Shown here: positions 2,314 to 62,043 of the stretch, one piece after another | Numbering within the stretch: position 1 is the stretch's first letter | Layout of the letters: each line of letters begins with the position of its first letter | Source: Candidatus Nomurabacteria bacterium | GTDB taxonomy: Bacteria > Patescibacteriota > Patescibacteriia > HK-STAS-PATE-3 | Assembly: GCA_023898465.1 (NCBI GenBank) | Contig: CP060223.1 | Coordinates: 736,001 to 800,000 of the forward strand | Reading direction: 5' to 3' | DNA: 64,000 nucleotides | Notes under the pieces: generated by a model | Databases searched by the model: none | What the model was told of the DNA's origin: nothing | Seen by the model: only the letters and a program-made list of their open reading frames with translations | Position numbers and translations under genes: made by a program

Positions 2314-2399
2314 CGGTACGGCCTTGAACCTTTCAAAAAAGGCGGCCGCCATCACTGCGCTGCGTATGTTTGGTGATGCAACGCTTTGTGACAAAGCTG

Positions 2400-2497
2400 T
2401 GGCAGATGCAGGATTCGAACCCAACGACTCGCGAAAGAGTCATCTGGTGAATCGGTTGTTAACCGACGGGACCACTCCCTGGTCACCAGCACCTGCC
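2400..2497 (-). ncRNA. tRNA-like structured element (7-bp acceptor-like stem GGCAGGT/ATCTGCC, GGGTTCGAATCC T-loop-like motif, several internal hairpins); not a canonical tRNA
   Basis: Minus-strand sequence GGCAGGTGCTGGTGACCAGGGAGTGGTCCCGTCGGTTAACAACCGATTCACCAGATGACTCTTTCGCGAGTCGTTGGGTTCGAATCCTGCATCTGCCA (98 nt). It has the T-loop consensus and a terminal acceptor-like pairing. It cannot be folded into a standard cloverleaf by hand. Confidence 0.3.
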
Positions 2498-20776: not shown

Positions 20777-21154
20777 CTAGGTGTTAAATAAAGAAATGAC
20801 GTGAGGGAGAACAATGAGCGCCACGATGAGCAATCCTACGAAAGAAGCAATCAGGACTGCTCCAGCCATAATGTCCTTAATCATTTGGACATAGGTATGG
20901 ATGCGGGGCTCAACAATATCAGTTAACTTTTCAAATGCGCTATTCAGTAACTCGAGAATCAGGATAAGCGCACATATTAAGAGCAACGTAATTATTTCCC
21001 AAGTCTGCAAAGGGAAAATAATGATGAAGAGAATGACGATAGCCACTGCGCCGGTCAGCACTCGGAAATTTTGTTCCTGCTGCCAAGTGGTTCGCAAACC
21101 TCTGATTGCGTAGCGGAAACTTTTGCGCAAAAGAGAGAAACTGAGAAAGCTCAT
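20777..21154 (-). CDS. dgkA: Diacylglycerol/undecaprenol kinase (DgkA family)
   Basis: 125-aa three-TM protein with the DgkA signature region (…ELLNSAFE…). Confidence 0.8.
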   Translation of the reverse strand: MSFLSFSLLRKSFRYAIRGLRTTWQQEQNFRVLTGAVAIVILFIIIFPLQTWEIITLLLICALILILELLNSAFEKLTDIVEPRIHTYVQMIKDIMAGAVLIASFVGLLIVALIVLPHVISLFNT

Positions 21155-21603
21155 GACCGTGCTTTTGTGAGATAGTCTTTCACTTTATCCTCCCAAGCGC
21201 GCATTATGCGTCGCTCCCCTACTTTGTGATGATCGTGTCCGAGCAAATGCAGATAACCATGGATAAGCAGATCGCGTAACTCCTCTTTAACCGGTCGTTT
21301 CCGTCGATCTGCCTGACGTTGCATTTGATCAGGCGCAATAATCAGCTCGCCAAAAGGGAAATCATCTGAGGAAGCATCCTGGTCACCCTCCATAGTATAC
21401 GTGAAAGAGAGCACATCCGTCACGCGATCAATTTTCCGGTAGCGCTTATTGAGGCGCCGTACTTCTTGATCAGGGAGGAAGGTAACTACAACAGAGTGTT
21501 CCGAATCTTTGGTTTCAGTTAGCTTAGCAGCTGCTTGGATTACTTGGCGAATCCAAGTGGTTGAAAGGTGCGCGGGGGTCTGATTAACAACAGTAATACG
21601 CAT
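21151..21603 (-). CDS. ybeY: rRNA maturation endoribonuclease YbeY
   Basis: HGYLHLLGHDH zinc-binding motif. Confidence 0.85.
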   Translation of the reverse strand: MRITVVNQTPAHLSTTWIRQVIQAAAKLTETKDSEHSVVVTFLPDQEVRRLNKRYRKIDRVTDVLSFTYTMEGDQDASSDDFPFGELIIAPDQMQRQADRRKRPVKEELRDLLIHGYLHLLGHDHHKVGERRIMRAWEDKVKDYLTKARS

Positions 21604-21606
21604 CAG

Positions 21607-22743
21607 CTAGGACGAAGAGCTCGTCAAGCGGAAGCTCTGATACATCATATCAAAAGTCGTCTGGAAATTGAGTGCTGTCAGTTGGCTTACCGCGTAATGA
21701 ATCACGTAAATCTTATCAGCTTTTCCTAAGTACACATCCTCACCAGTCGGGCTCTTTACGCCTTCTAGACCATTCACCACCACATCCTCCAAATCACTGG
21801 AGCTCACGCCTGTATTTAGGGAAAGATAGTAATTTCGGGCGCTTAGCTTTGTTGGGTTATCCTCAACAATAACCTGGATAGTCTCACCAGTTGGATTCGT
21901 AGGCAAAAACTGCACAGTACGGCTATTTTGATCAGTAGCCGAAGCAACCCATTGGGTTGGATAGAGCATAGTGTAGTTAAAGCTGGTGTTGGTAAAGCTT
22001 CGCACTAAGCCTGTGGTATCTAAACGACCGATTCCGCGTGGATTGTAGCCGAGATAGACCTCACCAACGATTTCTGAGGCGCTGTTGACGCGCTTTCCGT
22101 CAATGAAGCCATCTCCATCAGTATCAGGTTGTGTGGCTTCGGTGCCATAGAGCTGCTCTTCCACATCGGTTAAACCATCATCATCGCTATCTAGGGTTGA
22201 TGGCAAAGGTTCAGTTCGAGTGCCCGTGGTATTCGTATTTGTCGTCGTATTTGTATTCGCGCTGTTCGTGTTGGTGGACGTATTGGTATTTTGATTCGTT
22301 ACCACACTATTCGTGTTCTGATTACTTACCGTGTTGGTATTTTGATTAGACACAGTATTCGTATTTCCATTCTCATTCCCATTCGTCACGTTCGCGTTAT
22401 TGGTATTCTGCGAAGCATTACTATTTGCTGAGGTGTTTGTGTTGCTGGTATTGAGATTAAGCTGGAAATTAGCCGCGTTTACGGTATTAGCATTGTCGTC
22501 AGCCGGAGACTGTACAAGGAAATAAACTGCCGCCGCAGCGCCTCCGCCGAGCAGTAAAGTAACCATAATGACAATCCAAAGCATGCGGTTTGGCTTGCCT
22601 GGTCGGCCTTTTTTCGCTTCTGGGTCCAAAAAACGATCCGGCATTACGTGGATATCATCGAAGTGCACCTTGGGGTTCTCGTTTGTATTTACCCCCGGTG
22701 TATTTTTTGGCTGTTGATCTTTGGAGTGATCTCTACCGAACAT
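21607..22743 (-). CDS. Membrane-anchored secreted protein with N/T-rich low-complexity linker and thrombospondin-type-3-like Ca-binding repeats
   Basis: N-terminal TM (LWIVIMVTLLLGGGAAAAVYFLV). Long NxNT repeats. DSDDDGLTDVEE…DTDGDGFIDGKR motifs. Confidence 0.5.
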   Translation of the reverse strand: MFGRDHSKDQQPKNTPGVNTNENPKVHFDDIHVMPDRFLDPEAKKGRPGKPNRMLWIVIMVTLLLGGGAAAAVYFLVQSPADDNANTVNAANFQLNLNTSNTNTSANSNASQNTNNANVTNGNENGNTNTVSNQNTNTVSNQNTNSVVTNQNTNTSTNTNSANTNTTTNTNTTGTRTEPLPSTLDSDDDGLTDVEEQLYGTEATQPDTDGDGFIDGKRVNSASEIVGEVYLGYNPRGIGRLDTTGLVRSFTNTSFNYTMLYPTQWVASATDQNSRTVQFLPTNPTGETIQVIVEDNPTKLSARNYYLSLNTGVSSSDLEDVVVNGLEGVKSPTGEDVYLGKADKIYVIHYAVSQLTALNFQTTFDMMYQSFRLTSSSS

Positions 22744-22751
22744 GACAAGCG

Positions 22752-23252
22752 TTATTGATTGACGTTGAGATTCGCGCGCGAGTTTTGAAAGTCGAGCAAC
22801 GAACCAGGTCCATTTGGATTAAAACGGTCTTTTACTTCTTCACCATCGAGAAATCCGTCACGGTCTGTATCGGCGACCAGCGGATCTGTCTGATATACCT
22901 CGACTTCTTCTCGATCGAATAAGAAATCAGAATCAGTGTCCACTCGAGTTGGGTCTGTGCCCAGCTCAGCCTCTTCGGCATCAGTAAGTCCATCCCCATC
23001 AGTGTCAGTCTCATCAGGATTTTGATCTGCTCCAGAACGTAATGACAGAGCATTTGTATTTGCACTGCTATTCGTGGTGCTATTGTTTACGCCGTTTTCT
23101 GTAGTGCTCTGTTTTGGCCAGTAGCGAAGAGCGAGGAGGACGATGATAAGAAGAGCAAGACTGACTATGAGTATACGAAGAATCAGCCCTTTTGACAATG
23201 CTCGAGATGGCTGAGATGAACTCATTTGTTGTTCAGGCGCTTCTTGGGGCAT
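22752..23252 (-). CDS. Membrane-anchored protein with thrombospondin-type-3-like DxDxDG repeats
   Basis: TM helix followed by N/S/T-rich linker. DTDGDGLTDAEE, DTDSDFLFDREE and DTDRDGFLDGEE repeats. Confidence 0.5.
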   Translation of the reverse strand: MPQEAPEQQMSSSQPSRALSKGLILRILIVSLALLIIVLLALRYWPKQSTTENGVNNSTTNSSANTNALSLRSGADQNPDETDTDGDGLTDAEEAELGTDPTRVDTDSDFLFDREEVEVYQTDPLVADTDRDGFLDGEEVKDRFNPNGPGSLLDFQNSRANLNVNQ

Positions 23253-23255
23253 AAC

Positions 23256-26200
23256 TTATGGTCTCTGATAATTAAAGCATGAGCAGCTGGAATTTCCTAG
23301 CGTATCAAAACTGCAAGGGTCGCCCAGTGGAGCTCCGGTCCACTTCCCTGGTCCGTCATACTCCATTTCAGCATACAGGGAGTAATTATTTGCCTCTTTA
23401 CACACGCCAGATCCGCCGCAGTCAGCATTAGATCGACAGGCAACACCACTTCCCTCGCATACTCGACTGGAGATGTAGGCGTAAATATTTGAACCGTTAG
23501 GGTCGCAGTAGAAGGTCTTGGTAGGCTCATTCCAGCAGGTTGTTTGCTCGTAGCCAGCCGGACAGGATCCAAATTGGTTGAGTGGATCAACACTCATACT
23601 ACGGCCAAGTGCATTACCCAAAGTGCTTTGCCAAGAAGGCCACTTAGAAGTACTCATGCCGAGGAGGAAGCTACCAGCTTCAAGGGATGGATAATGGCCA
23701 TTACTGGTGAAGTACTTTTCTAAACCAATGCTGGTATCCTGCAGATCTGCCAGGCGCTTGGTGTCTCGAATAATTTTTGCCTTATTCTCCGGGCCAATAC
23801 TTCCATTGGTATTCATTTTAATACGATTCAACATTTGCTGAAAAATATTGCGAGTGGCATCGTTTGCTCCATCGTTATAAGAAAGCACAAAAATGTGCGG
23901 TACCAATGAAGGAATCGCGTCAAATAAGTTGGTGCCAGCTAAGTAGACAGTCCGCCCATCTCGTAAGGCCTGATAACCATCTATAGTAGTCGATGATGGA
24001 GTGCTCGTAGCAAATGGGAACTGACGACGGTACCATTCTAGCGGTGACAAACCTTCGGAGTTTTGATATACCCGCACGCCAATGGCATCAATAGCATTCG
24101 AATCTGCTTCTTTAAACAAATACTGCTTCTGTACGTCTCCGGTCTGTCCTTTGATAACCTGCAAGTCAAAATTCGGCAACGTACTGTCATTATCACGACA
24201 ATACCCTAGGTGGAAATGATAGTCCTCACACCCTCCGCCCAGACTACAATTTCCCGCACTATCATCAAAATTCCATGCATCTGCACATCGGAAATAATCC
24301 ACTAAGGCCGAGCCGCGTTTCTCAGTGCCATCAGTGCTAACAGAGGCGGTGGCGGAAATAACGGCTTGGCCATTTTCTGCACCGGTCTTTGCTACATTCG
24401 TCGCACTTCCATCCGGCAGCTCCTGAGGATCAGTTAAGGTCGCTACCGTCGTAGTATCAATATCCCAGGACCAATCCCATTCATAGACGCCTGGAATCTC
24501 ATTTATCGGCCCTGAATCACTGCGTGGAGTAGCAGTAAAGAGCTGCTCCTGTCCCTCGGTATCAGCATTCCAAAGCGCTGGAGTGATATCCACGCCGGTT
24601 AATGCGCACACGCTGTCACTATCCACGCTAGTAAAGACCCAGGAGTAATTTGGCATGAGTACGCCGTCTGCACCTCGCAAGCCGTTCAATTCCGTACGAT
24701 ACGCAGTGTTCTTTAAGAGCAGACCAGGGTTCACCCGCAGCTGCGTGGCACTCTTTGCCGTAAAGGTAATGGGGACGCTATTGCCTACGCATCCGCCTGT
24801 TGTACAAACACCTGAAGCACACTCAGTACCCTCCGAACATGCCTCACCTTCACTAAGGCCTCCATCTACGGTCACAATCACCGTATCTGTGGTCATCGTG
24901 CTGACGTCCATAGCCTGGGCAAAATTGGCTTCGATGCTGGTATTGCGACACACGTCAGTATCGCCTGGATTTGGTCGGGTGCTGCTCACACTTGGTTGCG
25001 GCGCACAGCAGCCGGAATTTGCACAGCCATTCCCTACTGAACAATCACTATCAGCCACACAAACCTGACAACTTGGTGCGGTAATGGTGAAAGGGAAAGC
25101 ATTGCTGTCCCCGGCAGCCTTATGCACCACAGTATTCACTGTACCAGTAGGCAGGCCAAGCGGCACTAACACGTCGATTAACGCATCCACCCAGCCATTA
25201 AAGACACTCACATCAATACCTGAGAAACGGACGGCATCGCTTGCTTCTTGTGTGCCAAAATTTTGACCAATAATTTTTACCGGCTGTGCCTCTTGGCCGC
25301 TGTTTGGTTGCAAGGCACAAATGCCAGGTAGGATATTGCTGTTTACATCAAAGTCAGGAAGTATGGGCTCGCCCGTCGCGGCGTCATTAGTGCTATCACT
25401 TACCCCGTCTAAGCCACGCACAACGGTGATCGGACCATCAACTGCATCATCACCAGCTGGTGTGTTTCGATTTGGCACCTCGCTCGCCACAATCACGTTG
25501 TTCCGCCACAGCGCAGGAGGATTTGGACAAATATCACTATTAGCCCACAGGCCTTCTTTATCGCTTGAGTAGCGTACCTGACTATTGCCAACGCAAGTAC
25601 CACCCGGACAATCATTGTAGGTAGTGGTACAGCTAGCACCGTCATTATCACCACCAGAGCAGGTACCTGCCACATAGGATCCGAAATAACAACCATTGAT
25701 GGTTAACCAAGTGCCAATATCTCCACCGTTTGGGCTATAACCAGTGATAACTGGAGTACAGCGATGTTCTGCATTGTTACAGGTGCTTCCTCCACAGAGG
25801 CCGCCCTGCGTACAGTCAGTTGTTTCGTCACACCAGAGGAAATCAATGGTGAGATCGGAAGTATCATATTTACCGCTCCATGAACCCCGCACAGTAGCGT
25901 AGTCAGGAGCAGGTGGAAGTGTTGTTTCTTGTACGGCATGTACCGTAGCTACATCGTCACTAGTATCAGAGTCTGTGGCAAAGTCAGCGTCACCGCTTGG
26001 ACTAACTGTCCAGGTCCAAGGCGTCCCATCAGTATCAATCTGCTGGCCTCCAGCATCACATTGATCAGGGGAAGCATAGGCTTTGCCATAGAAATTTCGT
26101 TCACCATCCTCAACAGTGATGAGCTGGCTAGGAGGCGTCACGGTAACGTGGTCAACCGCGCAAGAGCTTGGGTCATCTTTTGTTCTGAAAGTCCACTGAT

Positions 26201-28850
26201 AAGCTGGAGAGCCAAGGTAGGTCGTATTGGTATTCCCGATTTCCTCTCCACTTGATCCTAATACTCCACCGGGGCCGCCAATTAAGAGTGCAGCATACCA
26301 CTGACTAATCTGCAGTGAACCAACTGGATCAAACTCCAGGCGATCGGTGGCTGCATCATAGGTAATCCCCTCCACGCCGACATTGCCAGTAAAGCTGGTA
26401 CAACTGGCATCTGAGCACTTACGCAAAAGTATAGTGCTGGTAGTCAAAGTGCTCGCATTAATATCGATGCTCGAAGGGCCAAAAGTATTGTGCAGCACCA
26501 CGTTCGGACAAACTGCCTGGCAAGTAGGCCAAGGGTCGGTAACAAAAATTTGATTCGGTGGATAATCCTGTACCGTAAACGGGACTGGGTTTGAATCATT
26601 ATCACTCGCGTCAGTCACATAGACTGGGTGGGTGTTACTCGCTGCACCGCTCGGCACTTGTGACATGGCTGACGTATCAGACCAGCTGGAAATCGTAGCG
26701 GGCTGTCCGTTGTAATAAGTTACCCCGCCGGTAGCTGAACCAAAGCGGACACCGCGTGCCTCAACAGTCTGACCTCGATATCCGCTGCTTGGACTCATCG
26801 AAGCAAGGCAAGGACCCTGAGCGGCCGTATCAGAGTTTACTGAAAAAGCGATATTCGTATTTGATTCCTGCGTACCATAGGCCCCGTCGTCGTAATCAAT
26901 GGTTACCTGTGTGTACACCGAATTACCATTGCTGTAATCCTCAGGAATCGTCGTGACAATGTAGTTTGGTGCAGCTGGGTCATTGAGGCGCGGCGAAGTA
27001 TTGGTCGGCGGCGGAAAAGCCGGGTCAGTATCAAAGTCAGGATCACGCGGCTGAGCACTATGCGTATCAGTGCCAGTGAAACAACTTCCATAAATAGTCA
27101 CGCATTGCCCAGGTGGACCGTTGTTTGGATTTATGGCTGCTACAAAAGGCACACAGGTACAATTTTCTGCATCAGTGACACTGAAATTCCAATTACCTGC
27201 CAGAGTATTTCCATCGCCATCGATTTCTCGATCAGTGGTGATGCGGACATTGAAGTCAGAATTCTGACTCAGGTCATTATTCGGATCAAATTGGTATACC
27301 TTGAAACCGGCATTTGGCGAGCCTGGATTTGGATCAATGATGCGGAAGACGCCGCCCAAGCCAGCCACTTCGTAATCTGGCCCTGGCATTGAGGAGGGAG
27401 CCGGCATGGTTGCACTCATATCTACACCCGGTGTGGCAGGATTATCAATCTCGATAGTTACTGAGTAATCCCACATCGATAGGGTGAAGACTGTAGTAAT
27501 ATTTGTGCTTGGGCAAACATTTCCGCCCTGTGGGTCATAGGCAGCAATACCAGCCGTCAAATCATTGGTTTGGAATTCCCACACTTCGGGCGGTTGTAAG
27601 CCGTTTCCACACAGATCTTCTACGTTTTGTACCGTGATGCGATACCAAGTGAAAGACTCCAACATGGCGCCGTCAGTGAATCGAATATCTACCCGATTAT
27701 CTCCACCTGAGCTAACAACAAGGGAGTCACTGGAGACTGTTCCAATCACTGCGCCACCCTCTCCATCAAGCTGCTGGAGATCAAAAATGCCTGGAATAGG
27801 ATGACTATCAACATCAGCCAAGGAGCTAATATCAATTGCCTCACTAAACCAAATCGAGAGTAAAGGATCGCGTGGTACGTTTCGATCTGGATATCCTGGC
27901 TCAGCACTGATCACCGGGTAAGCTGAACTAACGCTAGGCACCGTCTCATCAACTACATCATTGGTAGTGAAATTCCAGCGATAATGATCACCCGCATCAA
28001 CACAGCCACCGTCAGCGGTACAGTTCGTTAAGCTCAAACCGCCAGTGCTCTCTAAGGTTTTTGGAATGAATAACGTGTAATCAGCAAATGAGTCAAAAAG
28101 CTCATCTGGATGCTTAAAGGTGAGGCTCTTATCTGATGAAGTGAAGATACCAGACACCTCAGCTCCCCCACCGGCATGTTCAAGCTTCAATGGATTGGTC
28201 GCGTCATTCACTGCCGCCTCCACCGTTGCCGAATCAACATTTAAATTGAAACGCGGCATCACTCGACTGCAACGATTCACGTTTTGAGAATTGTCCGGCC
28301 CATCATGCGCAGTTAAAATTTCATTCACGGTAAATTGACTACTTGGCAGCATACAAAGGGGTGATGGGTCAGGTACATTACACTGCGTCCCAGACGCATC
28401 ACAAAGCAGACAAACTCCGCATGGTAAACCCGGATCACACGAATAGGTGTCGCCATTGGTGACATTACTTACCGTGTTGATGACAAAGGTAACAATGGCC
28501 CAGGAAATGAGAATAATAACGAGACCAACTGCCGCGCTGATGATAATCTGTTTTGCTTTATCAACCTTGTCGGCATTTCCACCAGCCGTCATCCAAATAT
28601 ACCCACCGTAGATAACAAAAACTACCGCTACCAGGGCCATAATACCGAGAGCCCAACGGATGATATTTATGATAACGTCTTTGAGATCAGCCGTACCCAG
28701 ACCGATTGAGCTGCCGATGTTTTCTATGGTAAAAGCTGTCGACTGTGCAGCCGCCGGTGCAGGATGAAAAGCTACACTAAGGGCGAGTAAGATACCCCCA
28801 GTAAAAATAACCCCTGTAATGATTCCGAGTAATAGTCGTTTCACAAGCAT
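23256..28850 (-). CDS. Giant (1864 aa) Cys-rich cell-surface protein; N-terminal two-TM hairpin resembling T4SS-pilin (VirB2/TrbC-like) fold, followed by Ig-like/beta-rich repeats and Cys-rich modules
   Basis: N-terminus has two hydrophobic helices separated by MTAGGNADKVDKAKQ. The body carries many repeated C-x-S/T-G-x-C modules and a single uninterrupted frame. Its size and composition are typical of CPR giant surface proteins. Confidence 0.65.
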   Translation of the reverse strand: MLVKRLLLGIITGVIFTGGILLALSVAFHPAPAAAQSTAFTIENIGSSIGLGTADLKDVIINIIRWALGIMALVAVVFVIYGGYIWMTAGGNADKVDKAKQIIISAAVGLVIILISWAIVTFVINTVSNVTNGDTYSCDPGLPCGVCLLCDASGTQCNVPDPSPLCMLPSSQFTVNEILTAHDGPDNSQNVNRCSRVMPRFNLNVDSATVEAAVNDATNPLKLEHAGGGAEVSGIFTSSDKSLTFKHPDELFDSFADYTLFIPKTLESTGGLSLTNCTADGGCVDAGDHYRWNFTTNDVVDETVPSVSSAYPVISAEPGYPDRNVPRDPLLSIWFSEAIDISSLADVDSHPIPGIFDLQQLDGEGGAVIGTVSSDSLVVSSGGDNRVDIRFTDGAMLESFTWYRITVQNVEDLCGNGLQPPEVWEFQTNDLTAGIAAYDPQGGNVCPSTNITTVFTLSMWDYSVTIEIDNPATPGVDMSATMPAPSSMPGPDYEVAGLGGVFRIIDPNPGSPNAGFKVYQFDPNNDLSQNSDFNVRITTDREIDGDGNTLAGNWNFSVTDAENCTCVPFVAAINPNNGPPGQCVTIYGSCFTGTDTHSAQPRDPDFDTDPAFPPPTNTSPRLNDPAAPNYIVTTIPEDYSNGNSVYTQVTIDYDDGAYGTQESNTNIAFSVNSDTAAQGPCLASMSPSSGYRGQTVEARGVRFGSATGGVTYYNGQPATISSWSDTSAMSQVPSGAASNTHPVYVTDASDNDSNPVPFTVQDYPPNQIFVTDPWPTCQAVCPNVVLHNTFGPSSIDINASTLTTSTILLRKCSDASCTSFTGNVGVEGITYDAATDRLEFDPVGSLQISQWYAALLIGGPGGVLGSSGEEIGNTNTTYLGSPAYQWTFRTKDDPSSCAVDHVTVTPPSQLITVEDGERNFYGKAYASPDQCDAGGQQIDTDGTPWTWTVSPSGDADFATDSDTSDDVATVHAVQETTLPPAPDYATVRGSWSGKYDTSDLTIDFLWCDETTDCTQGGLCGGSTCNNAEHRCTPVITGYSPNGGDIGTWLTINGCYFGSYVAGTCSGGDNDGASCTTTYNDCPGGTCVGNSQVRYSSDKEGLWANSDICPNPPALWRNNVIVASEVPNRNTPAGDDAVDGPITVVRGLDGVSDSTNDAATGEPILPDFDVNSNILPGICALQPNSGQEAQPVKIIGQNFGTQEASDAVRFSGIDVSVFNGWVDALIDVLVPLGLPTGTVNTVVHKAAGDSNAFPFTITAPSCQVCVADSDCSVGNGCANSGCCAPQPSVSSTRPNPGDTDVCRNTSIEANFAQAMDVSTMTTDTVIVTVDGGLSEGEACSEGTECASGVCTTGGCVGNSVPITFTAKSATQLRVNPGLLLKNTAYRTELNGLRGADGVLMPNYSWVFTSVDSDSVCALTGVDITPALWNADTEGQEQLFTATPRSDSGPINEIPGVYEWDWSWDIDTTTVATLTDPQELPDGSATNVAKTGAENGQAVISATASVSTDGTEKRGSALVDYFRCADAWNFDDSAGNCSLGGGCEDYHFHLGYCRDNDSTLPNFDLQVIKGQTGDVQKQYLFKEADSNAIDAIGVRVYQNSEGLSPLEWYRRQFPFATSTPSSTTIDGYQALRDGRTVYLAGTNLFDAIPSLVPHIFVLSYNDGANDATRNIFQQMLNRIKMNTNGSIGPENKAKIIRDTKRLADLQDTSIGLEKYFTSNGHYPSLEAGSFLLGMSTSKWPSWQSTLGNALGRSMSVDPLNQFGSCPAGYEQTTCWNEPTKTFYCDPNGSNIYAYISSRVCEGSGVACRSNADCGGSGVCKEANNYSLYAEMEYDGPGKWTGAPLGDPCSFDTLGNSSCSCFNYQRP

Positions 28851-28872: not shown

Positions 28873-29322
28873 TCAGCCGCTTAATTGCGACTTCACTATG
28901 GCTTGCACGGTCGCGCCATCAGCCTGACCTTTCGTTTTTGGCATAACTGCTGCCATTACCTTTCCCATATCCCCTAGGGAGCTAGCCCCTGTCTCAATAA
29001 TGGCTTCTTGGACGAACTTGGTAATATCTGCTTCAGACATTTGGGCTGGTAAATACTTCCCAATTGCCTCATATTCTGCCTTTTCTTGCTCTGCCAGCTC
29101 TGTTCGGCCGGCTTTGCTATACATATCCATAGCTTCTTTGCGCCGTTTCTGTTCGCGTTTCAGGACCTTCAAAACTTCTTCATCATCCAAAACCTCTTTT
29201 TTCAAGTCAATTTCTTCATTTTTCATGACTGATTTCAGATAGCGCAAAACCGCCACGGCGGTCTTGTCGCTAGAGACAAATGCTTTTTTATAGTCCTCTT
29301 CGATTGTCTGTTGGAGTCCCAT
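28873..29322 (-). CDS. GatB/YqeY domain-containing protein
   Basis: 149 aa matching the YqeY-like architecture (…LREQKRRKEAMDMYSKAGR…). Confidence 0.8.
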   Translation of the reverse strand: MGLQQTIEEDYKKAFVSSDKTAVAVLRYLKSVMKNEEIDLKKEVLDDEEVLKVLKREQKRRKEAMDMYSKAGRTELAEQEKAEYEAIGKYLPAQMSEADITKFVQEAIIETGASSLGDMGKVMAAVMPKTKGQADGATVQAIVKSQLSG

Positions 29323-29326
29323 TCAG

Positions 29327-29608
29327 CTATGTTCTTACTGAGGGTAAACGCGGTCCACTTGGTCGGCCGCCCTTGCGCTTCCGTCGATCCAATTCAGGAA
29401 GCTTTCCCATTTTACGAAGGAGCTCATTTCGATCCTTGATTTCTTTGCGTCGAATTGCGCTCTCACGAATTGCCCGCTTACTGCGAGGCGCTTCGTAATA
29501 TCTTCCTTTTTTTGCTCTTATGAGTAAGCCGCTTTGTTGGACTCGTTTGGTGAAGCGTCTGAGCAAGCTTTCAGTAGACTCACCGTCTTTCTTCTTTACT
29601 TCTACCAC
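29327..29608 (-). CDS. rpsU: 30S ribosomal protein S21 (with basic C-terminal extension)
   Basis: ESLLRRFTKRVQQSGLLIRAKKGRYYE matches the S21 core. Confidence 0.8.
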   Translation of the reverse strand: MVEVKKKDGESTESLLRRFTKRVQQSGLLIRAKKGRYYEAPRSKRAIRESAIRRKEIKDRNELLRKMGKLPELDRRKRKGGRPSGPRLPSVRT

Positions 29609-29757
29609 CGAGATAATTCACCTCCTTACTGAGATGCCCTGTCCGATAGACAGGCCTACGCGCAAACACGCGTACCGAACTTTTAAAGTAAAAAAAATAT
29701 ACCACTTTCTATGGGCCTATGTCAAATGGAAATATACCGCCCTAGATGGGACTTTAG

Positions 29758-30112: not shown

Positions 30113-31540
30113 TTATAAATCGAGCTTCTGTTGCGCTTCTGAAACGCCTGATTCCTCTTCCATTTTTGCTACAACCTCTGGATCAGCTGCTTGGAGTTGT
30201 TGTGACTTACCTCGTTGCAGGCGCTTCACCACTTCATTTACAATTTTCTGCATATCTACCACTTCCTGAATGCCGTTTTCCATATCACGGATGAGAATTG
30301 TTCCATCCATCATCTCTTTTTGGCCAAGAATCAGTGTATATTTTGCATTCACGCGATTGGCTGCTTCTAACTGAGGTTTAATGCCGTCTTTGCTTAAACT
30401 CTCAGCCACTCGGACGCCCTGAGCTGACAATTCGCCAAAAAGTTTAATGGAAAGTTTACGGGCTGGGTCACCTAATTGTGCCAAAAATACATCGGCATCT
30501 GGCAATGCTTGCGCTTGAACGCCTTGTTCATGCAATCGATTAATCAGACGCTCAATCCCGCAAGCCGCACCCACGGCTGGCGTGGCTCGTCCGCCAATTT
30601 GTTCAATTAGACCGTCATAACGACCGCCACCACCGAGCTCAATCACTCGATCATCCCCTTCTGAGAGAACTGGTAGGAACTCAAAAGCTGTTTTGGAGTA
30701 GTAATCCAATCCTCGTACAATTCGTGGATCAAGCGTATACGGAATTTCTAACTCATCAAGGTATTCCAGCACTGACACAAAGTGCTCCCGGCTTTCTGTA
30801 TTCAAGTGATCTACGGTTTGTGGCGCTGTTTCAGCTAGAGTGCGGCATCCTGTCTGTTTGCAGTCCAATAAGCGGAGGGGATTCTTTTGCATACGACGCA
30901 AACAGTCTTCACATAGCTCACTCTTGTGGGACTTATAGTAGTCCAATAAGGCTTTTTCATACGCTGCCCGACTTTCCTTATCACCTAAGCTGTTCATATG
31001 CACGTTCACCGGCACTTGCAAACGTCGAAACACCTCATAAGTCATCGAAATTATCTGAGCGTCAACAACAGGGTGCGCATCGCCGATCGCCTCAAAGCCA
31101 AATTGAAAAAACTGACGATAACGACCAGCCTGTGGCCTATCATGTCGAAAAAATGACTCAATATAAAAGACTTTTACCGGCTGCGGCTGATTTAACATCC
31201 CATGTTCAAGGTAGGCCCGAGCCACGCCAGCCGTCCCCTCAGGCCGTAAGGCTAGGGATTCGTTGCTACGGTCAGTGAAGGTGTACATTTCCTTTTCCAA
31301 TACATCAGTCTCTTTGCCGATAGTACGATTAAACAAAGCTGCTGGTTCCAGCACCGGGGTTTCAATCTGCTCATAACGATATTCCATTGCCACCTGACGC
31401 ACTGTTTCCTCAACTAAACGCCAATAACCCTGTTCACTCGGCAGAATGTCCTTCATACCACGAACGAGCGTTGGGGTTTTTGGCTGATTGCTTCGCTTCG
31501 GGGCTGCTTGTTCAGCTGTATCTTTTACTTCTTTGCTCAT
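30113..31540 (-). CDS. hisS: Histidine--tRNA ligase
   Basis: Class II aaRS motifs (GMKDILP, LRPEGTAGVARAY) and a C-terminal anticodon-binding domain. Confidence 0.9.
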   Translation of the reverse strand: MSKEVKDTAEQAAPKRSNQPKTPTLVRGMKDILPSEQGYWRLVEETVRQVAMEYRYEQIETPVLEPAALFNRTIGKETDVLEKEMYTFTDRSNESLALRPEGTAGVARAYLEHGMLNQPQPVKVFYIESFFRHDRPQAGRYRQFFQFGFEAIGDAHPVVDAQIISMTYEVFRRLQVPVNVHMNSLGDKESRAAYEKALLDYYKSHKSELCEDCLRRMQKNPLRLLDCKQTGCRTLAETAPQTVDHLNTESREHFVSVLEYLDELEIPYTLDPRIVRGLDYYSKTAFEFLPVLSEGDDRVIELGGGGRYDGLIEQIGGRATPAVGAACGIERLINRLHEQGVQAQALPDADVFLAQLGDPARKLSIKLFGELSAQGVRVAESLSKDGIKPQLEAANRVNAKYTLILGQKEMMDGTILIRDMENGIQEVVDMQKIVNEVVKRLQRGKSQQLQAADPEVVAKMEEESGVSEAQQKLDL

Positions 31541-32157
31541 TGGTTTGCTCCTGTGTCTACTACCGTATCATTACGAGAAAAATGGGTAAGTTTATCAAAA
31601 GGCCAAGCCCGAACCCAGATTCGACCAACGATCGAGTCTCCGGAAATAGGCCCAAATATACGCGAATCCAAACTTGATGGTCGATTATCGCCCATCACAA
31701 AGTATTCATTATCACTCAGGGTGACATCCTCGGTGCCATTGGTATAGATACTCTCAGGCAAATAAATAGATTCATCAAGGGTCATGCCATCCGGGTGCTC
31801 ACTATTAATGATTTGAATTGTGCCGTGTTGCAATTTTACTTCTTCGTTCGGCAATCCAATAATCCGTTTAATATAGAATTCAGACTCCTGTCGTGGATTA
31901 TGAAAGACCACTACTTCACCACGTCGCGGCTCAGAGATGCGATAACTCAACTCATCAATAATAAGGTATTCATTATCATGAAAATTCGGCTCCATCGAGG
32001 CGCCCTTCACATAAAAAGGCTGCATGAGAAAATAGCGAACCGGTACGATAATCGCCAAGGCGATAATCACTACTTTTAACAGCTCGACAAAAAATAAGCC
32101 GGCTGAAGTGGCAAATCCCGGAACTATCTTATCTTCACGACCAGCCATATCTGCCAT
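31537..32157 (-). CDS. lepB: Signal peptidase I (S26 family)
   Basis: GASMEPNF (catalytic Ser) and GDNRPSSLDSR motifs. The listed ORF start at 32313 overlaps the tRNA-Val gene. Start taken at the internal Met (MADMAGRED…) with RBS AGGAAA. An alternative start is at 32232. Confidence 0.8.
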   Translation of the reverse strand: MADMAGREDKIVPGFATSAGLFFVELLKVVIIALAIIVPVRYFLMQPFYVKGASMEPNFHDNEYLIIDELSYRISEPRRGEVVVFHNPRQESEFYIKRIIGLPNEEVKLQHGTIQIINSEHPDGMTLDESIYLPESIYTNGTEDVTLSDNEYFVMGDNRPSSLDSRIFGPISGDSIVGRIWVRAWPFDKLTHFSRNDTVVDTGANQ

Positions 32158-32282
32158 TTTCCTAGTTCCAACTGGTTGTAATGATTTATCGTCCTTGGAA
32201 TTTTTTGTAGACCGATATTCTGTTTTTGGCATAAGGCCGTTTTTGAAAAAATAGAAAGCGAATGAAGAAAAATTTCCTGGTG

Positions 32283-32356
32283 GACGATGGAGGAGTCGAA
32301 CCTCCGACCTCACGAATGTGAATCGTGCGCTCTAACCAACTGAGCTAATCGTCCAT
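32283..32356 (-). tRNA. tRNA-Val (anticodon CAC)
   Basis: Manual cloverleaf: GGACGAT/ATCGTCC acceptor, GCTC/GAGC D-stem, anticodon arm CACGA-TTCACAT-TCGTG, TTCGACT T-loop. Confidence 0.8.
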
Positions 32357-40167: not shown

Positions 40168-40351
40168 AGAAAAAACGCCAGTGTCAGTTTTCCTACGAGT
40201 GCGGGGCTTCACACTCTTTTTTGTAGTACTTACCAACACTGGCGTTGCAGGTCCGGAGGGTCGTCCGGACAGAGAAGGACATCGGCCGCGCTTGGCGAGA
40301 AGGAAGCGAGCTTCAATGCGAGTCTCACTCAAGCAACGACCGACGTCCATG

Positions 40352-40423
40352 TGCCGTGGGAGGGATTCGAACCCCCAACCTTCAGATTACGAGTCAGATG
40401 CTCTACCACTGAGCTACCACGGC
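40352..40423 (-). tRNA. tRNA-Thr (anticodon CGU)
   Basis: Manual cloverleaf GCCGTGG…CCACGGC-A. Anticodon arm TCTGA-CTCGTAA-TCTGA has one U·U pair. Confidence 0.7.
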
Positions 40424-40579
40424 AGCTGTGTTGCGGGTCCTCAGGGCCTGCATGCTCTTCCCAGCGTACTGGACACTTTGGGCTGCAACACAACTTTTTA
40501 AGGACAGGCCGGGAAAATCCCGGGGGTGTTTATCTATGCACCTCTCGGTGAACTGATGGTATTTCACCTGTCCAAGATG

Positions 40580-40650
40580 AGCGGGAGACGGGATTTGAAC
40601 CCGCGACCTTCCGCCAGAGGCGGCTGCTCTGCCAACTGAGCTACGCCCGC
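40580..40650 (-). tRNA. tRNA-like gene with non-canonical anticodon arm (isotype undetermined; possible pseudogene)
   Basis: Acceptor GCGGGCG/CTCCCGC has one mismatch. D and T arms are canonical. Between them CCGCC-TCT-GGCGG forms a perfect 5-bp stem with only a 3-nt loop, so no 7-nt anticodon loop can be drawn. Confidence 0.45.
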
Positions 40651-40796
40651 AAAAAAGAACGGACTAAGAATGTAGCGTATCCCCAAAAAGCTGTCAACCC
40701 TGTACCAGGCTTGGTGCGAGGTCAACCCTATCGTTCGCGAACTACGGAATCAAGAAAAAGGGAGATGCCATCAATGATGAACATCTCCCGAAGATT

Positions 40797-40868
40797 TGGT
40801 ACCTCCTGGAATCGAACCAGGGTAACCCGATTTTCAGTCGAGCACTCTACCAACTGAGTTAAGGTACC
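40797..40868 (-). tRNA. tRNA-Phe (anticodon GAA)
   Basis: GGTACCT acceptor. Anticodon arm CTCGA-CTGAAAA-TCGGG. T-loop TTCGATT. Confidence 0.8.
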
Positions 40869-40956
40869 GCTAGAGCGTGGCGGAAAGGCGAAGGACTTTC
40901 ACCAACTCACTGATCAAGACCAGCGTGTCCTCGGGGACGCCTTTCCAGAACAGATG

Positions 40957-41028
40957 AGGCGGGTCAAGGATTTGAACCTCGGAATCGCGGATTTGAAGAC
41001 CGCTGCCTTACCACTTGGCTAACCCGCC
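40957..41028 (-). tRNA. tRNA with UCA anticodon, tRNA-Cys-like body (candidate UGA-reading tRNA)
   Basis: GGCGGGT/ACCCGCC acceptor with discriminator U73. Anticodon arm GCGGT-CTTCAAA-TCCGC gives U33, anticodon 34-36 = UCA, A37. Short variable loop, 72 nt. The acceptor, discriminator and anticodon stem closely resemble bacterial tRNA-Cys (GCA), with G34 changed to U. Confidence 0.55.
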
Positions 41029-41050
41029 TTTCAACCTATAAGTTAGAGAG

Positions 41051-41124
41051 GCGCCCTGGAAGGAATTGAACCTCCGACATCTGGGTCCATAGCCCAGCGC
41101 TCTTCCGACTGAGCTACAGGGCAC
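41051..41124 (-). tRNA. tRNA-His-like (extra 5' G-1 opposite C73); anticodon reads AUG by manual fold, atypical
   Basis: G-1 + TGCCCTG acceptor with C73. D-arm GCTC-AGTCGGAA-GAGC. Anticodon arm CTGGG-CTATGGA-CCCAG. Body resembles tRNA-His, but position 34 is A rather than G. Confidence 0.45.
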
Positions 41125-41133
41125 AACAAACGG

Positions 41134-41206
41134 TAGCGCAAGCAGGATTCAAACCTACGTTTCCACACAGAGAATGTGGCGACCTAAACCACTAGTCGAT
41201 TGCGCC
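41134..41206 (-). tRNA. tRNA, anticodon CUC by manual fold (Glu-like), atypical U37
   Basis: GGCGCAA/TTGCGCT acceptor (G1·U72). Anticodon arm CCACA-TTCTCTG-TGTGG. T-loop TTTGAAT. Confidence 0.45.
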
Positions 41207-41311
41207 GGCAAATAGATTGCGACAGACCCTCTTCCGAGAGAGTGACGGCTCATCCTGCTATGAAAGAGGCCATCACAAAATGGTAAGCAATGTACTACAC
41301 CTGATCTAATG

Positions 41312-41386
41312 CGGCGCTGACAGGATTTGAACCTGCGAAACACTCGGCTGACCGCCGAGCTGCCTTAACCACTAGACTACAGCGCC
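41312..41386 (-). tRNA. tRNA-Asp-like (anticodon GUC), with 6-bp anticodon stem and G33
   Basis: GGCGCTG/CAGCGCC acceptor. Anticodon arm GCTCGG-CGGTCAG-CCGAGT. 75 nt. Confidence 0.5.
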
Positions 41387-41470: not shown

Positions 41471-42118
41471 TCAATTCAGCGAGAAACGGAAGGGAATGAC
41501 TGTCCAGACGGCCACCGCCCTATCACGCTGCTTCGCCGGACTAAAGAGCCACTGGAGTGCCGCAGCACATGCTGACTGATTCATCGACTCGAGCACCTCA
41601 CTCTGCACCACACTCGCTGCATCAACCGCACCGGTCTCGGTAATATGCACGCGCACCATCACCAAACCTTCCGCACCAGCCTGACGAGCCAAGTCAGGAT
41701 AGACCGGAGCTACCCGATGAATGACCTGTGGCGCTGTATCATAGGCCACAAAAGTCTCGGGTATTCCACTGTCCTGTCCGCTCATCACAATTGGCGGAGC
41801 AAAGGGATCGTAGGTCGTAGGAGCCAGCGTTTCTTCCAGACTGGCCATCTCGCTGATCTCAGCCTCAGCCGGCAAGTCAGGTCGCTGCACTTCTTGCGGC
41901 GGAGGTGGAACCACGAAGTCCTCCATGAACTCCACCGCGGTCATCACGCGCTCATGCAACTGATAAGGATGCGGGACATAGGGCGGCGAAAACCTGGCGA
42001 GCAAGAACAAGAGGGCAGTTGCTACCAGAAAACTCCAGCCTATGTCACGCCAGTAGTGCTGCTTCAGTAGGTAATGCTCTGAGGCACGGAAGCTTTCCAA
42101 TCCGATCACAAAGCACAC
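41471..42118 (-). CDS. TonB C-terminal-domain protein (N-terminal TM anchor, Pro-rich spacer)
   Basis: TM helix, then PPPPQEVQRPDLPAE spacer, then C-terminal …PVYPDLARQAGAEGLVMVRVHITETGAV…, a TonB_C-like motif. Confidence 0.55.
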   Translation of the reverse strand: MCFVIGLESFRASEHYLLKQHYWRDIGWSFLVATALLFLLARFSPPYVPHPYQLHERVMTAVEFMEDFVVPPPPQEVQRPDLPAEAEISEMASLEETLAPTTYDPFAPPIVMSGQDSGIPETFVAYDTAPQVIHRVAPVYPDLARQAGAEGLVMVRVHITETGAVDAASVVQSEVLESMNQSACAAALQWLFSPAKQRDRAVAVWTVIPFRFSLN

Positions 42119-59260: not shown

Positions 59261-59740
59261 TTAACTTTCCCCAATTTCGCTTTTTCCTAACCAAGCGTCA
59301 ATCGTCCACTTCCATGATTTACGCCATACAAGGAAAATAGACAATACAATCAAACCTAAATCCTTTAAGAGCGCTTCAGTCGGTGTCGCTCCGATCGAGA
59401 AAGTACCAAAGCAACCACAATCGATGTCTGTGTTCCCTCGAGCAATATTAATACTAATGGCAATGATAAAGCTCAAGAGCATAAGCGTGAGCGCTCCAGC
59501 CGCCCATCGACGCCAAAATCCAGCCAACACAAAGAGACCGCCCAATAACTCAATCCACGGCGTCACCAATGCGAATATACTTACCATACCCTCGGGAAGT
59601 AATTCGTAGGTGCGAATCGCTGCCTCAAATTCCTCCACTGGCGCCATGAGCTTCCCAAGCGCGGCGTAAACAAAGATTCCACCGACCAGCAAGCGAGCAA
59701 GCCATTCTAAGGCAATCAGCCAGCGCTTAGTTGTTGGCAT
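59261..59740 (-). CDS. DoxX/MauE-family membrane protein with CGCFG motif (putative thiol-oxidoreductase partner)
   Basis: Four TM helices and a …IDCGCFGTF… motif characteristic of MauE/DoxX-like proteins. Start taken at the internal Met to avoid overlap with the downstream DsbA. Confidence 0.6.
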   Translation of the reverse strand: MPTTKRWLIALEWLARLLVGGIFVYAALGKLMAPVEEFEAAIRTYELLPEGMVSIFALVTPWIELLGGLFVLAGFWRRWAAGALTLMLLSFIIAISINIARGNTDIDCGCFGTFSIGATPTEALLKDLGLIVLSIFLVWRKSWKWTIDAWLGKSEIGES

Positions 59741-60527
59741 TGACCTCGGATTGGTCAGTCGATGCAGTAGCGTCCGCTTCGGCAATTGCGGCATCGATCA
59801 CGGACTTCCAATTATCAGTGGTCATACCACCGACACGTCGCTCTCCATTGATGAAGAAGGTAGGAGTAGAATTTACCTTACGAGCATTACCTTCCCCAAT
59901 ATCAGTATTTACCGCTTCTTTTTGCTCGGTATTATCTATACAGCTTTGAAAAGCTTCGGAATCAATCCCAAGGTCAGAAGCGTACTGCACAAAAGTGTCA
60001 GTAACGGTGGAGCCGCTTAATACTGACCAGCTCGCTTGCTCCTCAAAAAGTTTATCGTGATACTCCCAGAACTTACCTTGCGCGAATGCACATTGTGCCG
60101 CCTCTGCAGCTGCTCGTGCATTTTTGTGAATGGTAGTTAAGGGATAATCATTGTACACAAAGCGCACATCATTTGGATATGCCGCCAACACTTCAGGGAG
60201 ATTTGTATCTGCTGCCTTACAGGCTGGACACTGGAAATCTGAGTACTCTTCAATTAAGACCTTTGCGGTTTCAGGACCTCGGCTTGGGTCGTTATCGTTT
60301 GAGAAATCACCTGCTGTACTTGTATTGTCACTACCCTGGAAAGCCCAAATACCTCCTCCAACAACCACTACAAGAATGATGACAGTCCAAATAAGCTTTT
60401 TCATACGGGCTGACTGGGCACCTTTTTCTCGGTTTGCCATTTTTTCTTGGCGTCGTAATTCTCGTCGCTGTTTTTTGGTTAGCTGCTGTTCTGTATTATC
60501 GTTCATAGCTTTGTAGAAAAGTATCAA
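59727..60527 (-). CDS. DsbA-like thioredoxin-fold thiol:disulfide oxidoreductase, membrane-anchored (paralog 1)
   Basis: TM anchor. CxxC active site FQCPACK. C-terminal cis-Pro region …TPTFFING…. Confidence 0.7.
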   Translation of the reverse strand: MILFYKAMNDNTEQQLTKKQRRELRRQEKMANREKGAQSARMKKLIWTVIILVVVVGGGIWAFQGSDNTSTAGDFSNDNDPSRGPETAKVLIEEYSDFQCPACKAADTNLPEVLAAYPNDVRFVYNDYPLTTIHKNARAAAEAAQCAFAQGKFWEYHDKLFEEQASWSVLSGSTVTDTFVQYASDLGIDSEAFQSCIDNTEQKEAVNTDIGEGNARKVNSTPTFFINGERRVGGMTTDNWKSVIDAAIAEADATASTDQSEVNANN

Positions 60528-61170
60528 GTAGTCCTAAATCCCAGGTTAAAGTTTGCTCGCTTTGTCCGGGGATGGCAATAGTCAATTGTAAGGTTTTTGG
60601 ATTCACTTTATCGATATCCAATCCTTCTTCACTTGTCCGGGCAAAGGCTACTAAGCCAATACGTTGATTGACTTCAGAGGCTGGCAAGAGCACTGAGTTA
60701 GCCTCTGACCACTGCTGCACGGGATATACATTACCCTCATCATCACTTAAGCTAACAATTTCCTCAGGATCAAATTCAGAAAGTTCATCATCTGAACTAG
60801 CTAAGGTGAGGTAGAAGACGATTGTATCAGTATTTGGCTTCAGGATGGCTAAACGATCAGCAACTTCACCCTGATGCCCTGATTTGGTGGGAAGCGCCTC
60901 TAATGCACTAGCCAGCTCTGGGAAAAAATAGCTCGCTTCTACCAATATCTTTGCATTCGTATCACCACTCCGCCAGCCAGCATCAAAGTAATCAGTAAAG
61001 ACGCCTTCGGGGGAAGTATCGCTTGAGGTATTACTAAGGAGTGTAGTGTCGCTAATAGAACTCGATCCATGCGGCCAACTTAGCCACACTCCGAAGATAA
61101 TTACCACAATACCAAAAGCCCAGAACCACACGGGCAAACTGGGCTTTGGTGTAACTTTCTTACGTGGCAT
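60496..61170 (-). CDS. Hypothetical exported protein with N-terminal TM anchor (DUF4352-like beta-sandwich, tentative)
   Basis: 224 aa with a signal-anchor and S/T-rich linker. Confidence 0.45.
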   Translation of the reverse strand: MPRKKVTPKPSLPVWFWAFGIVVIIFGVWLSWPHGSSSISDTTLLSNTSSDTSPEGVFTDYFDAGWRSGDTNAKILVEASYFFPELASALEALPTKSGHQGEVADRLAILKPNTDTIVFYLTLASSDDELSEFDPEEIVSLSDDEGNVYPVQQWSEANSVLLPASEVNQRIGLVAFARTSEEGLDIDKVNPKTLQLTIAIPGQSEQTLTWDLGLLDTFLQSYER

Positions 61171-61184
61171 GCTGCCGAATCGTT

Positions 61185-61967: not shown

Positions 61968-62043
61968 GTGCTCGAGAATTTAAGAAAAAAATGAAATGCC
62001 TAAGTGATGGATAGTATACGAATTTTGAGCCCGTATTGTCAAT

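Follow-up and report, generated by a model that had tools for sequence, protein, structure and literature searches.

A conserved gene block of Patescibacteria encoding a giant protein with a VirB2-like N-terminal module and two TSP3-repeat membrane proteins: a candidate surface fibre complex

What kind of structure is specified by a gene for an 1864-aa, cysteine-rich protein that starts like a small pilin and is followed by two genes for proteins with calcium-binding repeats? This question is raised by three genes, here called giant, TSP3a and TSP3b (TSP3, thrombospondin type 3), in Candidatus Nomurabacteria bacterium (contig CP060223.1); the window, that is, the whole stretch of DNA analysed, comprises 64 kb. 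An initial interpretation of the nucleotide sequence and its open reading frames (the sequence-only reading) had taken the trio for a co-transcribed adhesin or attachment organelle whose largest component has an N terminus resembling pilins of type IV secretion systems (T4SS). Based on domain architecture and gene order we propose that the trio is a conserved, constitutively expressed, membrane-anchored surface fibre complex of Patescibacteria, a proposal to which we give about an even chance of being correct; a role of the complex in adhesion is an inference.

The three open reading frames were found exactly where they had been placed before, all on the minus strand and separated by only 3 and 8 nt (Table 1). 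The giant is 100% identical to USN53265.1, which bears the NCBI name 'Ig-like domain-containing protein [Candidatus Nomurabacteria bacterium]'. Downstream of the giant gene, TSP3 genes are present in all 31 orthologous loci with visible downstream sequence, and this, together with the tiny gaps, upholds the view of the trio as a real functional unit.

Architecture of the giant protein and its TSP3 partners

By score and topology the giant is a member of the T4SS_pilin family (PF18895), albeit without the small size and the T4SS linkage that are usual for this family. The match covers residues 56–123 and profile positions 5–71 of 71, with 35.6 bits against a curated gathering cutoff of 26.6 (E = 9.9e-9). 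A second curated model, the NCBIfam 'pilin-like conjugal transfer protein' of a Mycoplasma integrative and conjugative element, matches the same residues with a score under its cutoff. The topology, consisting of a signal peptide, two hydrophobic helices and a short basic loop (TAGGNADKVDKAKQ), is that of the family. Hydropathy segments are located at residues 2–32, 56–91 and 96–131. Thus, both of the transmembrane (TM) helices noted previously are present, but the first of the three segments had escaped attention and represents the signal peptide. AlphaFold2 (AF2) predicts a helix at residues 2–27, followed by a low-confidence linker, and a helical hairpin (helices 56–87 and 93–131; pLDDT 86–93 over residues 56–131). 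Cleavage of the signal peptide presumably takes place at the A-x-A/AQ junction, which is kept in 54 giant homologues. All of these have in common a signal peptide ending A-Q, the motif '..IEDIGSxIGLGTADLK', TM1, the motif 'WMTAGGNxxKVxKAKK' and TM2, and a precomputed PF18895 call exists for 54/54. In the giant itself the conserved mature N-terminal peptide is FTIENIGSSIGLGTADLK and the loop between TM1 and TM2 is WMTAGGNADKVDKAKQ.

The earlier claim of a pilin-like N terminus therefore holds insofar as the family threshold is passed and the similarity is more than chance. It does not extend to a sequence link with solved pilins: a Pfam scan of the giant detected no canonical VirB2/TrbC domain (PF04956) at E≤0.1, and a profile built from 22 giant-type N termini retrieved no pilin from the PDB at E≤10, including the solved VirB2 and TraA structures. 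Moreover, the giant falls outside the size range of small stand-alone pilins (~100–130 aa) as the module occupies only the first ~125 of its 1,864 residues.

The stalk that follows carries a series of Ig-like domains. Scans of the whole protein gave scores above thresholds for Big_5 (100.8 bits, three stretches) and TIG (54.4 bits, two stretches), and segment scans placed three Big_5 domains (PF13205) at residues ~186–296, 301–428 and 1285–1407 and three TIG domains (PF01833) at ~568–596 (partial), 680–759 and ~1181–1254. This amounts to at least six Ig-like domains with support from hidden Markov models (HMMs), to which about five further domain-sized, beta-rich segments without a Pfam call have to be added. 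The giant contains 60 cysteines and seven cysteine-rich clusters, six of which lie within the stalk, and comparison with the 16 closest orthologues shows 45 of the 60 to be kept in 15 or all of them. While the cysteine-rich clusters of the sequence-only reading are real, the exact motif C-x-S/T-G-x-C-x-x-GG-C that it had counted at least four times occurs only once (residues 1344–1354). Three four-cysteine cassettes, present in 10, 6 and 2 of the 16 orthologues, come and go as a whole, and this behaviour as units is as expected for inserted two-disulfide knots. The conserved cysteines are as expected for an extracellular protein in the oxidised state and agree with the three DsbA-like genes at 59.7–62.8 kb of the window, whose previously reported presence was confirmed (59727–62772, minus strand). 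These DsbA/Thioredoxin_4 paralogs lie in a row that is broken by a gene for a 224-aa protein without Pfam match and is followed by a gene for a Big_13 Ig-like protein (62871–63866, minus strand); the row seems to be a gene cluster serving the formation of disulfides outside the cytoplasm.

At its C terminus the giant carries a two-domain module that had been missed, as had the presence of a PsbP-like domain in both the giant and TSP3b. The structure model of the module is of high confidence and gave PsbP-like and pilin-like matches. In structural comparisons the PsbP/Mog1-like domain matches structures of the PsbP family. There is moderate support for a resemblance of the last domain, into which a four-cysteine cassette is inserted at residues 1798–1817, to the head of type IV pilins or type II secretion system (T2SS) pseudopilins. 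No hydrophobic segment that could represent a class III signal peptide or a hydrophobic alpha1-N was found in front of this domain (~1686). Since the head-like domain is internal, located behind the PsbP-like domain and devoid of alpha1-N, it cannot polymerise in the fashion of a pilin. In other genomes the PsbP-like and head-like pair, preceded by an ordinary signal peptide, makes up small secreted proteins by itself, which identifies the pair as a self-contained module. Genes for such proteins are present in loci L026 (7923–8759), L029 (5224–6006), L052 (7202–7939), L039 (1461–6602) and L037 (9548–12253), and some of the products are lengthened by cysteine-rich 'CGDG' or FN3-like repeats.

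Both partner proteins possess a single N-terminal TM helix and a linker rich in N and T, which bears out the previous description of their membrane anchoring. In TSP3a the TM helix (~17–47) and a short N/S/T-rich linker are followed by three TSP3 repeats at residues 83–139 (nt 22836–23006), which are recognised by TSP3_bac (PF18884) with 45.9 bits against a cutoff of 25. In TSP3b the TM helix (~53–78) is connected via a linker with 71% N+T+S (residues 83–178) to repeats at residues 185–218 (nt 22090–22191). The pattern D-x-D-x-D-G-x-x-D-x-x-E is present in two exact copies and one degenerate copy in TSP3a and in two copies in TSP3b. The description of both as TSP3-repeat proteins is thus firm at the level of the family model for TSP3a, but it rests on the motif for TSP3b, where no TSP3_bac match was obtained with Pfam at E≤0.1. 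A small TSP3 orthologue follows the giant in most loci scanned, with none being recognisable in L015, L019, L034 and L042.

The C-terminal domain of TSP3b (residues ~235–378, nt 21610–22041; ~145 residues) is PsbP-like. PsbP_2 matched C-terminal domains of this type in 4/7 orthologues (best E = 3.7e-5), and their best PDB match is the cyanobacterial PsbP 2xb3 (E = 0.0045). An hhalign comparison with the C-terminal profile of the giant yielded a probability of 97.3% (E = 2.2e-11, 133 columns), and at the level of profiles the two PsbP-like domains are homologous. The cytoplasmic portion of TSP3b contains the motif IHVMPDRF (residues 31–38, nt 22630–22653, minus strand). It conforms to the pattern [IV][HY][TV]MP[EDAS][KR]F, which was detected in 25 of 32 TSP3b orthologues (loci L009–L051), with near-variants in most others; a different cytoplasmic motif, 'EDIF', characterises the middle TSP3 proteins of loci with three such genes. 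Conservation of these tails suggests that the TSP3 proteins have intracellular partners.

Table 1. Features of the three-gene block and its flanks (positions in the window)
Feature	Position	Strand	Remarks
giant gene	23256-28850	minus	1864 aa, cysteine-rich; stop TAA
giant residues 1-35	28746..28850	minus	Sec-type signal peptide ending ...PAPAAA, followed by QS; hydropathy, AF2, conserved junction
giant residues 36-125	28476..28745	minus	mature N-terminal peptide, TM1, loop and TM2: VirB2-like 'T4SS_pilin' module; PF18895, AF2
giant residues 126-1555	24186..28475	minus	extracellular stalk; Pfam whole-protein and segment scans, cysteine clusters
giant residues ~1556-1685	23796..24185	minus	PsbP/Mog1/LpqN-like alpha/beta domain
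giant residues ~1686-1864	23259..23795	minus	long helix and beta-sheet domain, type IV pilin/T2SS pseudopilin head-like
TSP3a gene	22752-23252	minus	166 aa, single-pass membrane protein
TSP3b gene	21607-22743	minus	378 aa, single-pass membrane protein
promoter-like site	29696-29725	minus	best of region, just upstream of rpsU; 11/12 and extended TG, consensus match only
rpsU	29327-29608	minus	upstream of yqeY
yqeY	28873-29322	minus	upstream of giant
ybeY	21151-21603	minus	downstream of TSP3b
dgkA	20777-21154	minus	downstream of ybeY; followed by ftsA, ftsZ

Genomic context and conservation of the block

The three genes are embedded in a densely packed string of housekeeping genes. From rpsU to ftsA the gaps range from -4 to 22 nt (rpsU–yqeY, 4 nt; yqeY–giant, 22 nt; TSP3b–ybeY, 3 nt; ybeY–dgkA, -4 nt; dgkA–ftsA, 17 nt). 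With one genome per species, a synteny scan yielded 45 loci; they come from the ABY1 lineages Kerfeld-, Uhr- and Komeilibacteria, from Paceibacter and from the Parcubacteria group. The following counts were made on the 40 loci whose giant has 1,000 aa or more. The order rpsU-yqeY-giant-TSP3-TSP3/PsbP-ybeY-dgkA-ftsA-ftsZ is near-invariant: a TSP3 gene follows the giant in 31/31 loci with visible downstream sequence and a gene for a PsbP-like TSP3 protein in 30/31, ybeY and dgkA are located downstream in 29/30 and ftsA in 28/30, and yqeY precedes the giant in 27/28. Six further homologue loci (35–57% identity; the more distant ones 34–37% over ~41% of the query) each have two or three TSP3 genes after the giant, and yqeY lies directly upstream in five of them, the place being taken by a gene for a 572-aa Big_5 protein in the sixth (P0049). 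One lineage has mreC-PBP2 as neighbours and one has glycosyltransferase and Wzy genes downstream. The 54 full-length homologues, of 1,068–3,235 aa, display the same architecture, nearly all of them with Big_5.

This phylum-wide synteny had not been noticed in the sequence-only reading. Among the proteins scanned in the 64-kb window there is no member of the T4SS families, VirB4 and VirB6 included, and no second pilin module; the block is surrounded not by a T4SS locus but by the housekeeping cluster rpsU...ftsZ. Its conserved position inside the ancient rpsU-yqeY...ybeY-dgkA string argues for a vertically inherited core module and against a mobile T4SS island. The same conserved string (lepB-hisS-HIT-rpsU-yqeY-giant) includes a gene for a signal peptidase I (Peptidase_S26; 31537–32313, minus strand). 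LepB-like peptidases process the TrbC pilin in RP4; the enzyme of the string is probably a plain housekeeping signal peptidase.

A number of contigs with clear Patescibacteria gene content have the record title 'uncultured Gammaproteobacteria bacterium' (L009, L012, L014, L017–L021, L024, L033, L036–L038, L046, L048 and L053; for example CAZBLW010000001.1, which encodes P0026), and these assemblies seem to be taxonomically mislabelled.

Conservation is unevenly distributed along the giant. Mean pairwise identity peaks in the mature N-terminal peptide (0.72), followed by the hairpin (0.64); it is intermediate in the two distal domains (0.42–0.46) and reaches its lowest values in the stalk, all but three segments of which lie at 0.31–0.38. 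Conservation is strong both in the loop motif WMTAGGN..K..KAK and in the peptide that precedes TM1.

Surface fibre, pilus subunit or envelope scaffold

We propose the following model for a surface fibre complex. Export via Sec and cleavage by signal peptidase would leave the hairpin of the giant in the cytoplasmic membrane, with the lysine-rich loop facing the cytoplasm and the two ends facing outwards. Oxidised by the DsbA paralogs, the ectodomain of ~1,730 residues would then reach tens of nanometres through the wall, its Ig-like stalk being stapled by disulfides. The TSP3 partners would bind Ca2+, associate with the giant, possibly via the paralogous PsbP-like domains, and use the MPxxF motif of the tail to connect the complex with a partner in the cytoplasm. 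A conserved ligand would be bound by the distal two-domain module; it may be located on another cell, a surface, or the envelope or pili of the cell itself. For such a system, T4SS genes in cis would not be necessary, and the giant may co-assemble with other proteins that contain the pilin module. In keeping with this model, T4SS-pilin-domain proteins belong to the secreted proteins with the highest expression in cultured Paceibacteria (PMC10936435).

Several observations weigh against this model. The pilin module is very highly conserved, which speaks for a function beyond that of a passive anchor. There is no hypervariable tip, which argues against a fast-evolving, host-specific adhesin. Foldseek does not recover the likeness of the last domain to a pilin head. 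Furthermore, co-transcription of the trio is predicted from gene spacing only, and surface localisation, complex formation, Ca2+ binding and adhesion are predictions as well. With regard to the proposed adhesin or attachment organelle, the unity of the trio has stood up, but the role is a matter of interpretation, and the distal domains show conservation instead of hypervariability. Such conservation fits a conserved partner or a structural role as well as it fits host adhesion.

The strong conservation of the mature peptide and the hairpin leads to the most serious alternative, according to which the giant is a modular VirB2-type pilin. A chromosomal T4SS encoded elsewhere would extract the N-terminal module from the membrane and polymerise it together with small PF18895 pilins. 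The giant would thereby become a minor or tip subunit of a conjugative-type pilus, from which its ectodomain of 1,700 residues is displayed, and would serve as the T4SS adhesin that surveys lacked. The module scores above the family threshold, as described above, and with a profile of the N termini of the giants, 81,798 representative proteins were matched at E≤1e-3, of which 29,949 also reached E≤1e-10. Small pilins are among them, as are proteins with several tandem copies and many of 500–3,568 aa that have a single copy at the N terminus. Some of the 'small' matches are giants cut at contig ends, but a genuine stand-alone pilin of 131 aa (P0118, complete gene) scores as high as the N termini of the giants. 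In Uhrbacteria and Komeilibacteria, genes for a genuine 123-aa pilin and for 510–650-aa proteins composed of a pilin module and Ig-like (Big_5) domains are located between yqeY and the giant (L034, 885–3206; L042, 889–3207; also L043, L044, L045, L048, L050 and L051). These genes lie directly upstream of the giant in a local pilin array graded by size, and no T4SS gene is visible in the vicinity. Many other proteins contain 2–17 tandem copies of the module in one open reading frame (P0055–P0068, P0115, P0127 and others; 17 stretches in the 1,775-aa P0059) and may be fused pilin arrays or polyproteins.

Published work gives the background to this alternative. PF18895 pilins have been described as VirB2-like parts of a widespread, relaxase-less Patescibacteria T4SS. 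VirB4 was reported in 2,417 of 3,035 assemblies, usually near dnaA, and a 2025 survey recorded a pilin near virB4 in only 1,135 of 1,948 assemblies. Three genomes that carry an orthologous block are listed as VirB4-positive. A VirB2-like pilin array is essential in the T4SS locus of Southlakia epibionticum (PMC10633639; PMC12102498), and a survey of Patescibacteria T4SS stated that 'no adhesins such as PrgB were detected'. On the other side stand the lack of any T4SS gene within 64 kb, synteny with housekeeping genes instead of virB4, and the missing sequence link to solved VirB2/TraA pilins, for which the hairpin fold is a non-discriminating test. No pilus has as yet been demonstrated for any Patescibacteria T4SS. 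Moreover, we know of no precedent for a VirB2-type pilin with a C-terminal extension of 1,700 residues. All in all, we rate incorporation of the giant into a T4SS pilus as rather unlikely. A wider version appears slightly less likely still, namely that the giant represents a new class of modular VirB2-type pilins, with a chromosomally encoded T4SS pilus in which the giant, its tip pairing a PsbP-like domain with a type IV-pilin-like head, and the mid-sized pilin–Ig proteins are adhesin-bearing subunits and the TSP3/PsbP proteins couple the base to the cytoplasm.

Alternatively, the trio might be an envelope or division scaffold without any host contact, in which a wall-spanning spacer or surface-layer component is tied to FtsA/FtsZ or MreC/PBP2 via the TSP3 tails. 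The near-invariant location beside ybeY-dgkA-ftsA-ftsZ or, in one lineage, mreC-PBP2 would be accounted for, as would the apparently constitutive expression from the rpsU promoter region, the conserved rather than diversifying distal domains and the conserved cytoplasmic motifs of the TSP3 proteins; according to database descriptions, PsbP/LpqN-like domains serve envelope biogenesis in other bacteria. However, the rpsU/yqeY/ybeY/dgkA synteny is an ancient housekeeping order that need not mean shared function, and the lineage with glycosyltransferase and Wzy genes downstream departs from it. In addition, an Ig-like stalk with a distal binding module is typical of adhesins, and the proteins are not homologous to known division or surface-layer proteins. 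We therefore consider a scaffold function quite improbable. That the hairpin is a generic two-helix anchor matching a low-complexity Pfam model, and that the three genes encode independent surface proteins, is highly improbable and is disfavoured by synteny, given that the order is kept in 30–31 of 31 loci over distant lineages, that the loop motif and the pre-TM peptide are strongly conserved, that two independent curated pilin models match (one under its cutoff) and that the giant and TSP3b have a homologous domain.

As a putative surface fibre complex, the block is a good candidate for a cell-surface contact apparatus of ABY1 and Paceibacteria lineages. It bears on the question of how bacteria of the candidate phyla radiation (CPR) other than the few cultured Saccharibacteria make contact with hosts, and on the function of relaxase-less T4SS. 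PF18895 is not confined to small pilins but heads many large surface proteins; hence, 'VirB2' counts obtained with this HMM include giants. If the giant were indeed a modular pilin, this would explain the retention of relaxase-less T4SS with pilins across the CPR and would supply the 'missing' T4SS adhesin. If the pilin module were only an anchor, the block would be a well-characterised but fairly ordinary surface-protein operon.

Relation to known systems and other features of the window

None of the domain types of the giant is new, and databases already list the protein by a generic name. Novelty appears to lie in the combination of a pilin-module anchor, an Ig-like stalk and a PsbP-like/pilin-head tip with obligate TSP3/PsbP partners and a conserved location in the core genome. 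No mention of giant pilin fusions or of this gene block was found in the literature searched.

The giant has the signal peptide, two TM helices and basic loop of Patescibacteria VirB2-like pilins (PF18895) and scores alike. By contrast, those pilins are ~100–130 aa long and usually encoded in arrays near virB4, whereas the giant has a 1,730-residue ectodomain and is encoded in a housekeeping cluster. In modular type IV pilins such as PilB and PilC of Streptococcus sanguinis, a functional module is grafted onto a pilin module. The concept of a pilin module fused to a large binding module is the same in the giant, which, however, uses a VirB2-like hairpin instead of alpha1-N, has its type IV-like head at the far C terminus and is no more than a possible filament component. 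Compared with GspG/PulG/EpsG of T2SS and type IV pilin heads (T2SSG, PF08334), the head-like domain of the giant is internal and lacks both a class III signal peptide and alpha1-N.

In its mode of action the giant would most closely resemble giant Ig-repeat, Ca2+-dependent adhesins (SiiE, Bap/RTX-type, Mobiluncus; PMC6272769, PMC10619420), which likewise combine a long, cross-linked or calcium-stabilised Ig stalk with a distal non-Ig module. Export and anchoring are different: these adhesins are exported by type I secretion systems or anchored by sortase, while the giant would be exported via Sec and held by its N-terminal pilin-like hairpin. Furthermore, the giant uses disulfide knots and leaves the calcium-binding repeats to separate partner proteins. 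The latter contain the same repeat as CglD/MtsD of Myxococcus, with weak NCBIfam matches over the repeat region (27.5 bits against a cutoff of 400), but they are small and single-pass, have a linker rich in N and T, to which a PsbP-like domain is added in TSP3b, and lack a VWA domain and a lipoprotein anchor. The fold of PsbP (2xb3), LpqN of M. tuberculosis (6e5d) and BT_1490 (3hlz) is that of giant residues ~1556–1685 and of the C-terminal domain of TSP3b; sequence scores are under the Pfam cutoffs, and the context, at the tip of a giant and in a TSP3 membrane protein, is new.

Three further features of the window deserve mention. ARAGORN called a 99-nt tRNA-Val(AAC) at 2399–2497 (minus strand) on which the Rfam tRNA model is silent at gathering score; the call may be spurious, or the tRNA may contain an intron. 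A well-formed tRNA of 73 nt with the anticodon UCA (reading UGA) is encoded at 40956–41028 (minus strand) within a tRNA cluster (40351–41386). ARAGORN labels it 'SeC', yet it is too short for a tRNA-Sec and may be a UGA suppressor or a Trp(UCA)-type tRNA, with no relevance to the giant, which ends with TAA. As TGA terminates 14 of the 49 predicted genes of the window, the genetic code looks standard. Finally, a 215-aa protein (41471–42118, minus strand) contains a TonB_C domain (63.5 bits) in a bacterium that is presumed to be devoid of an outer membrane.

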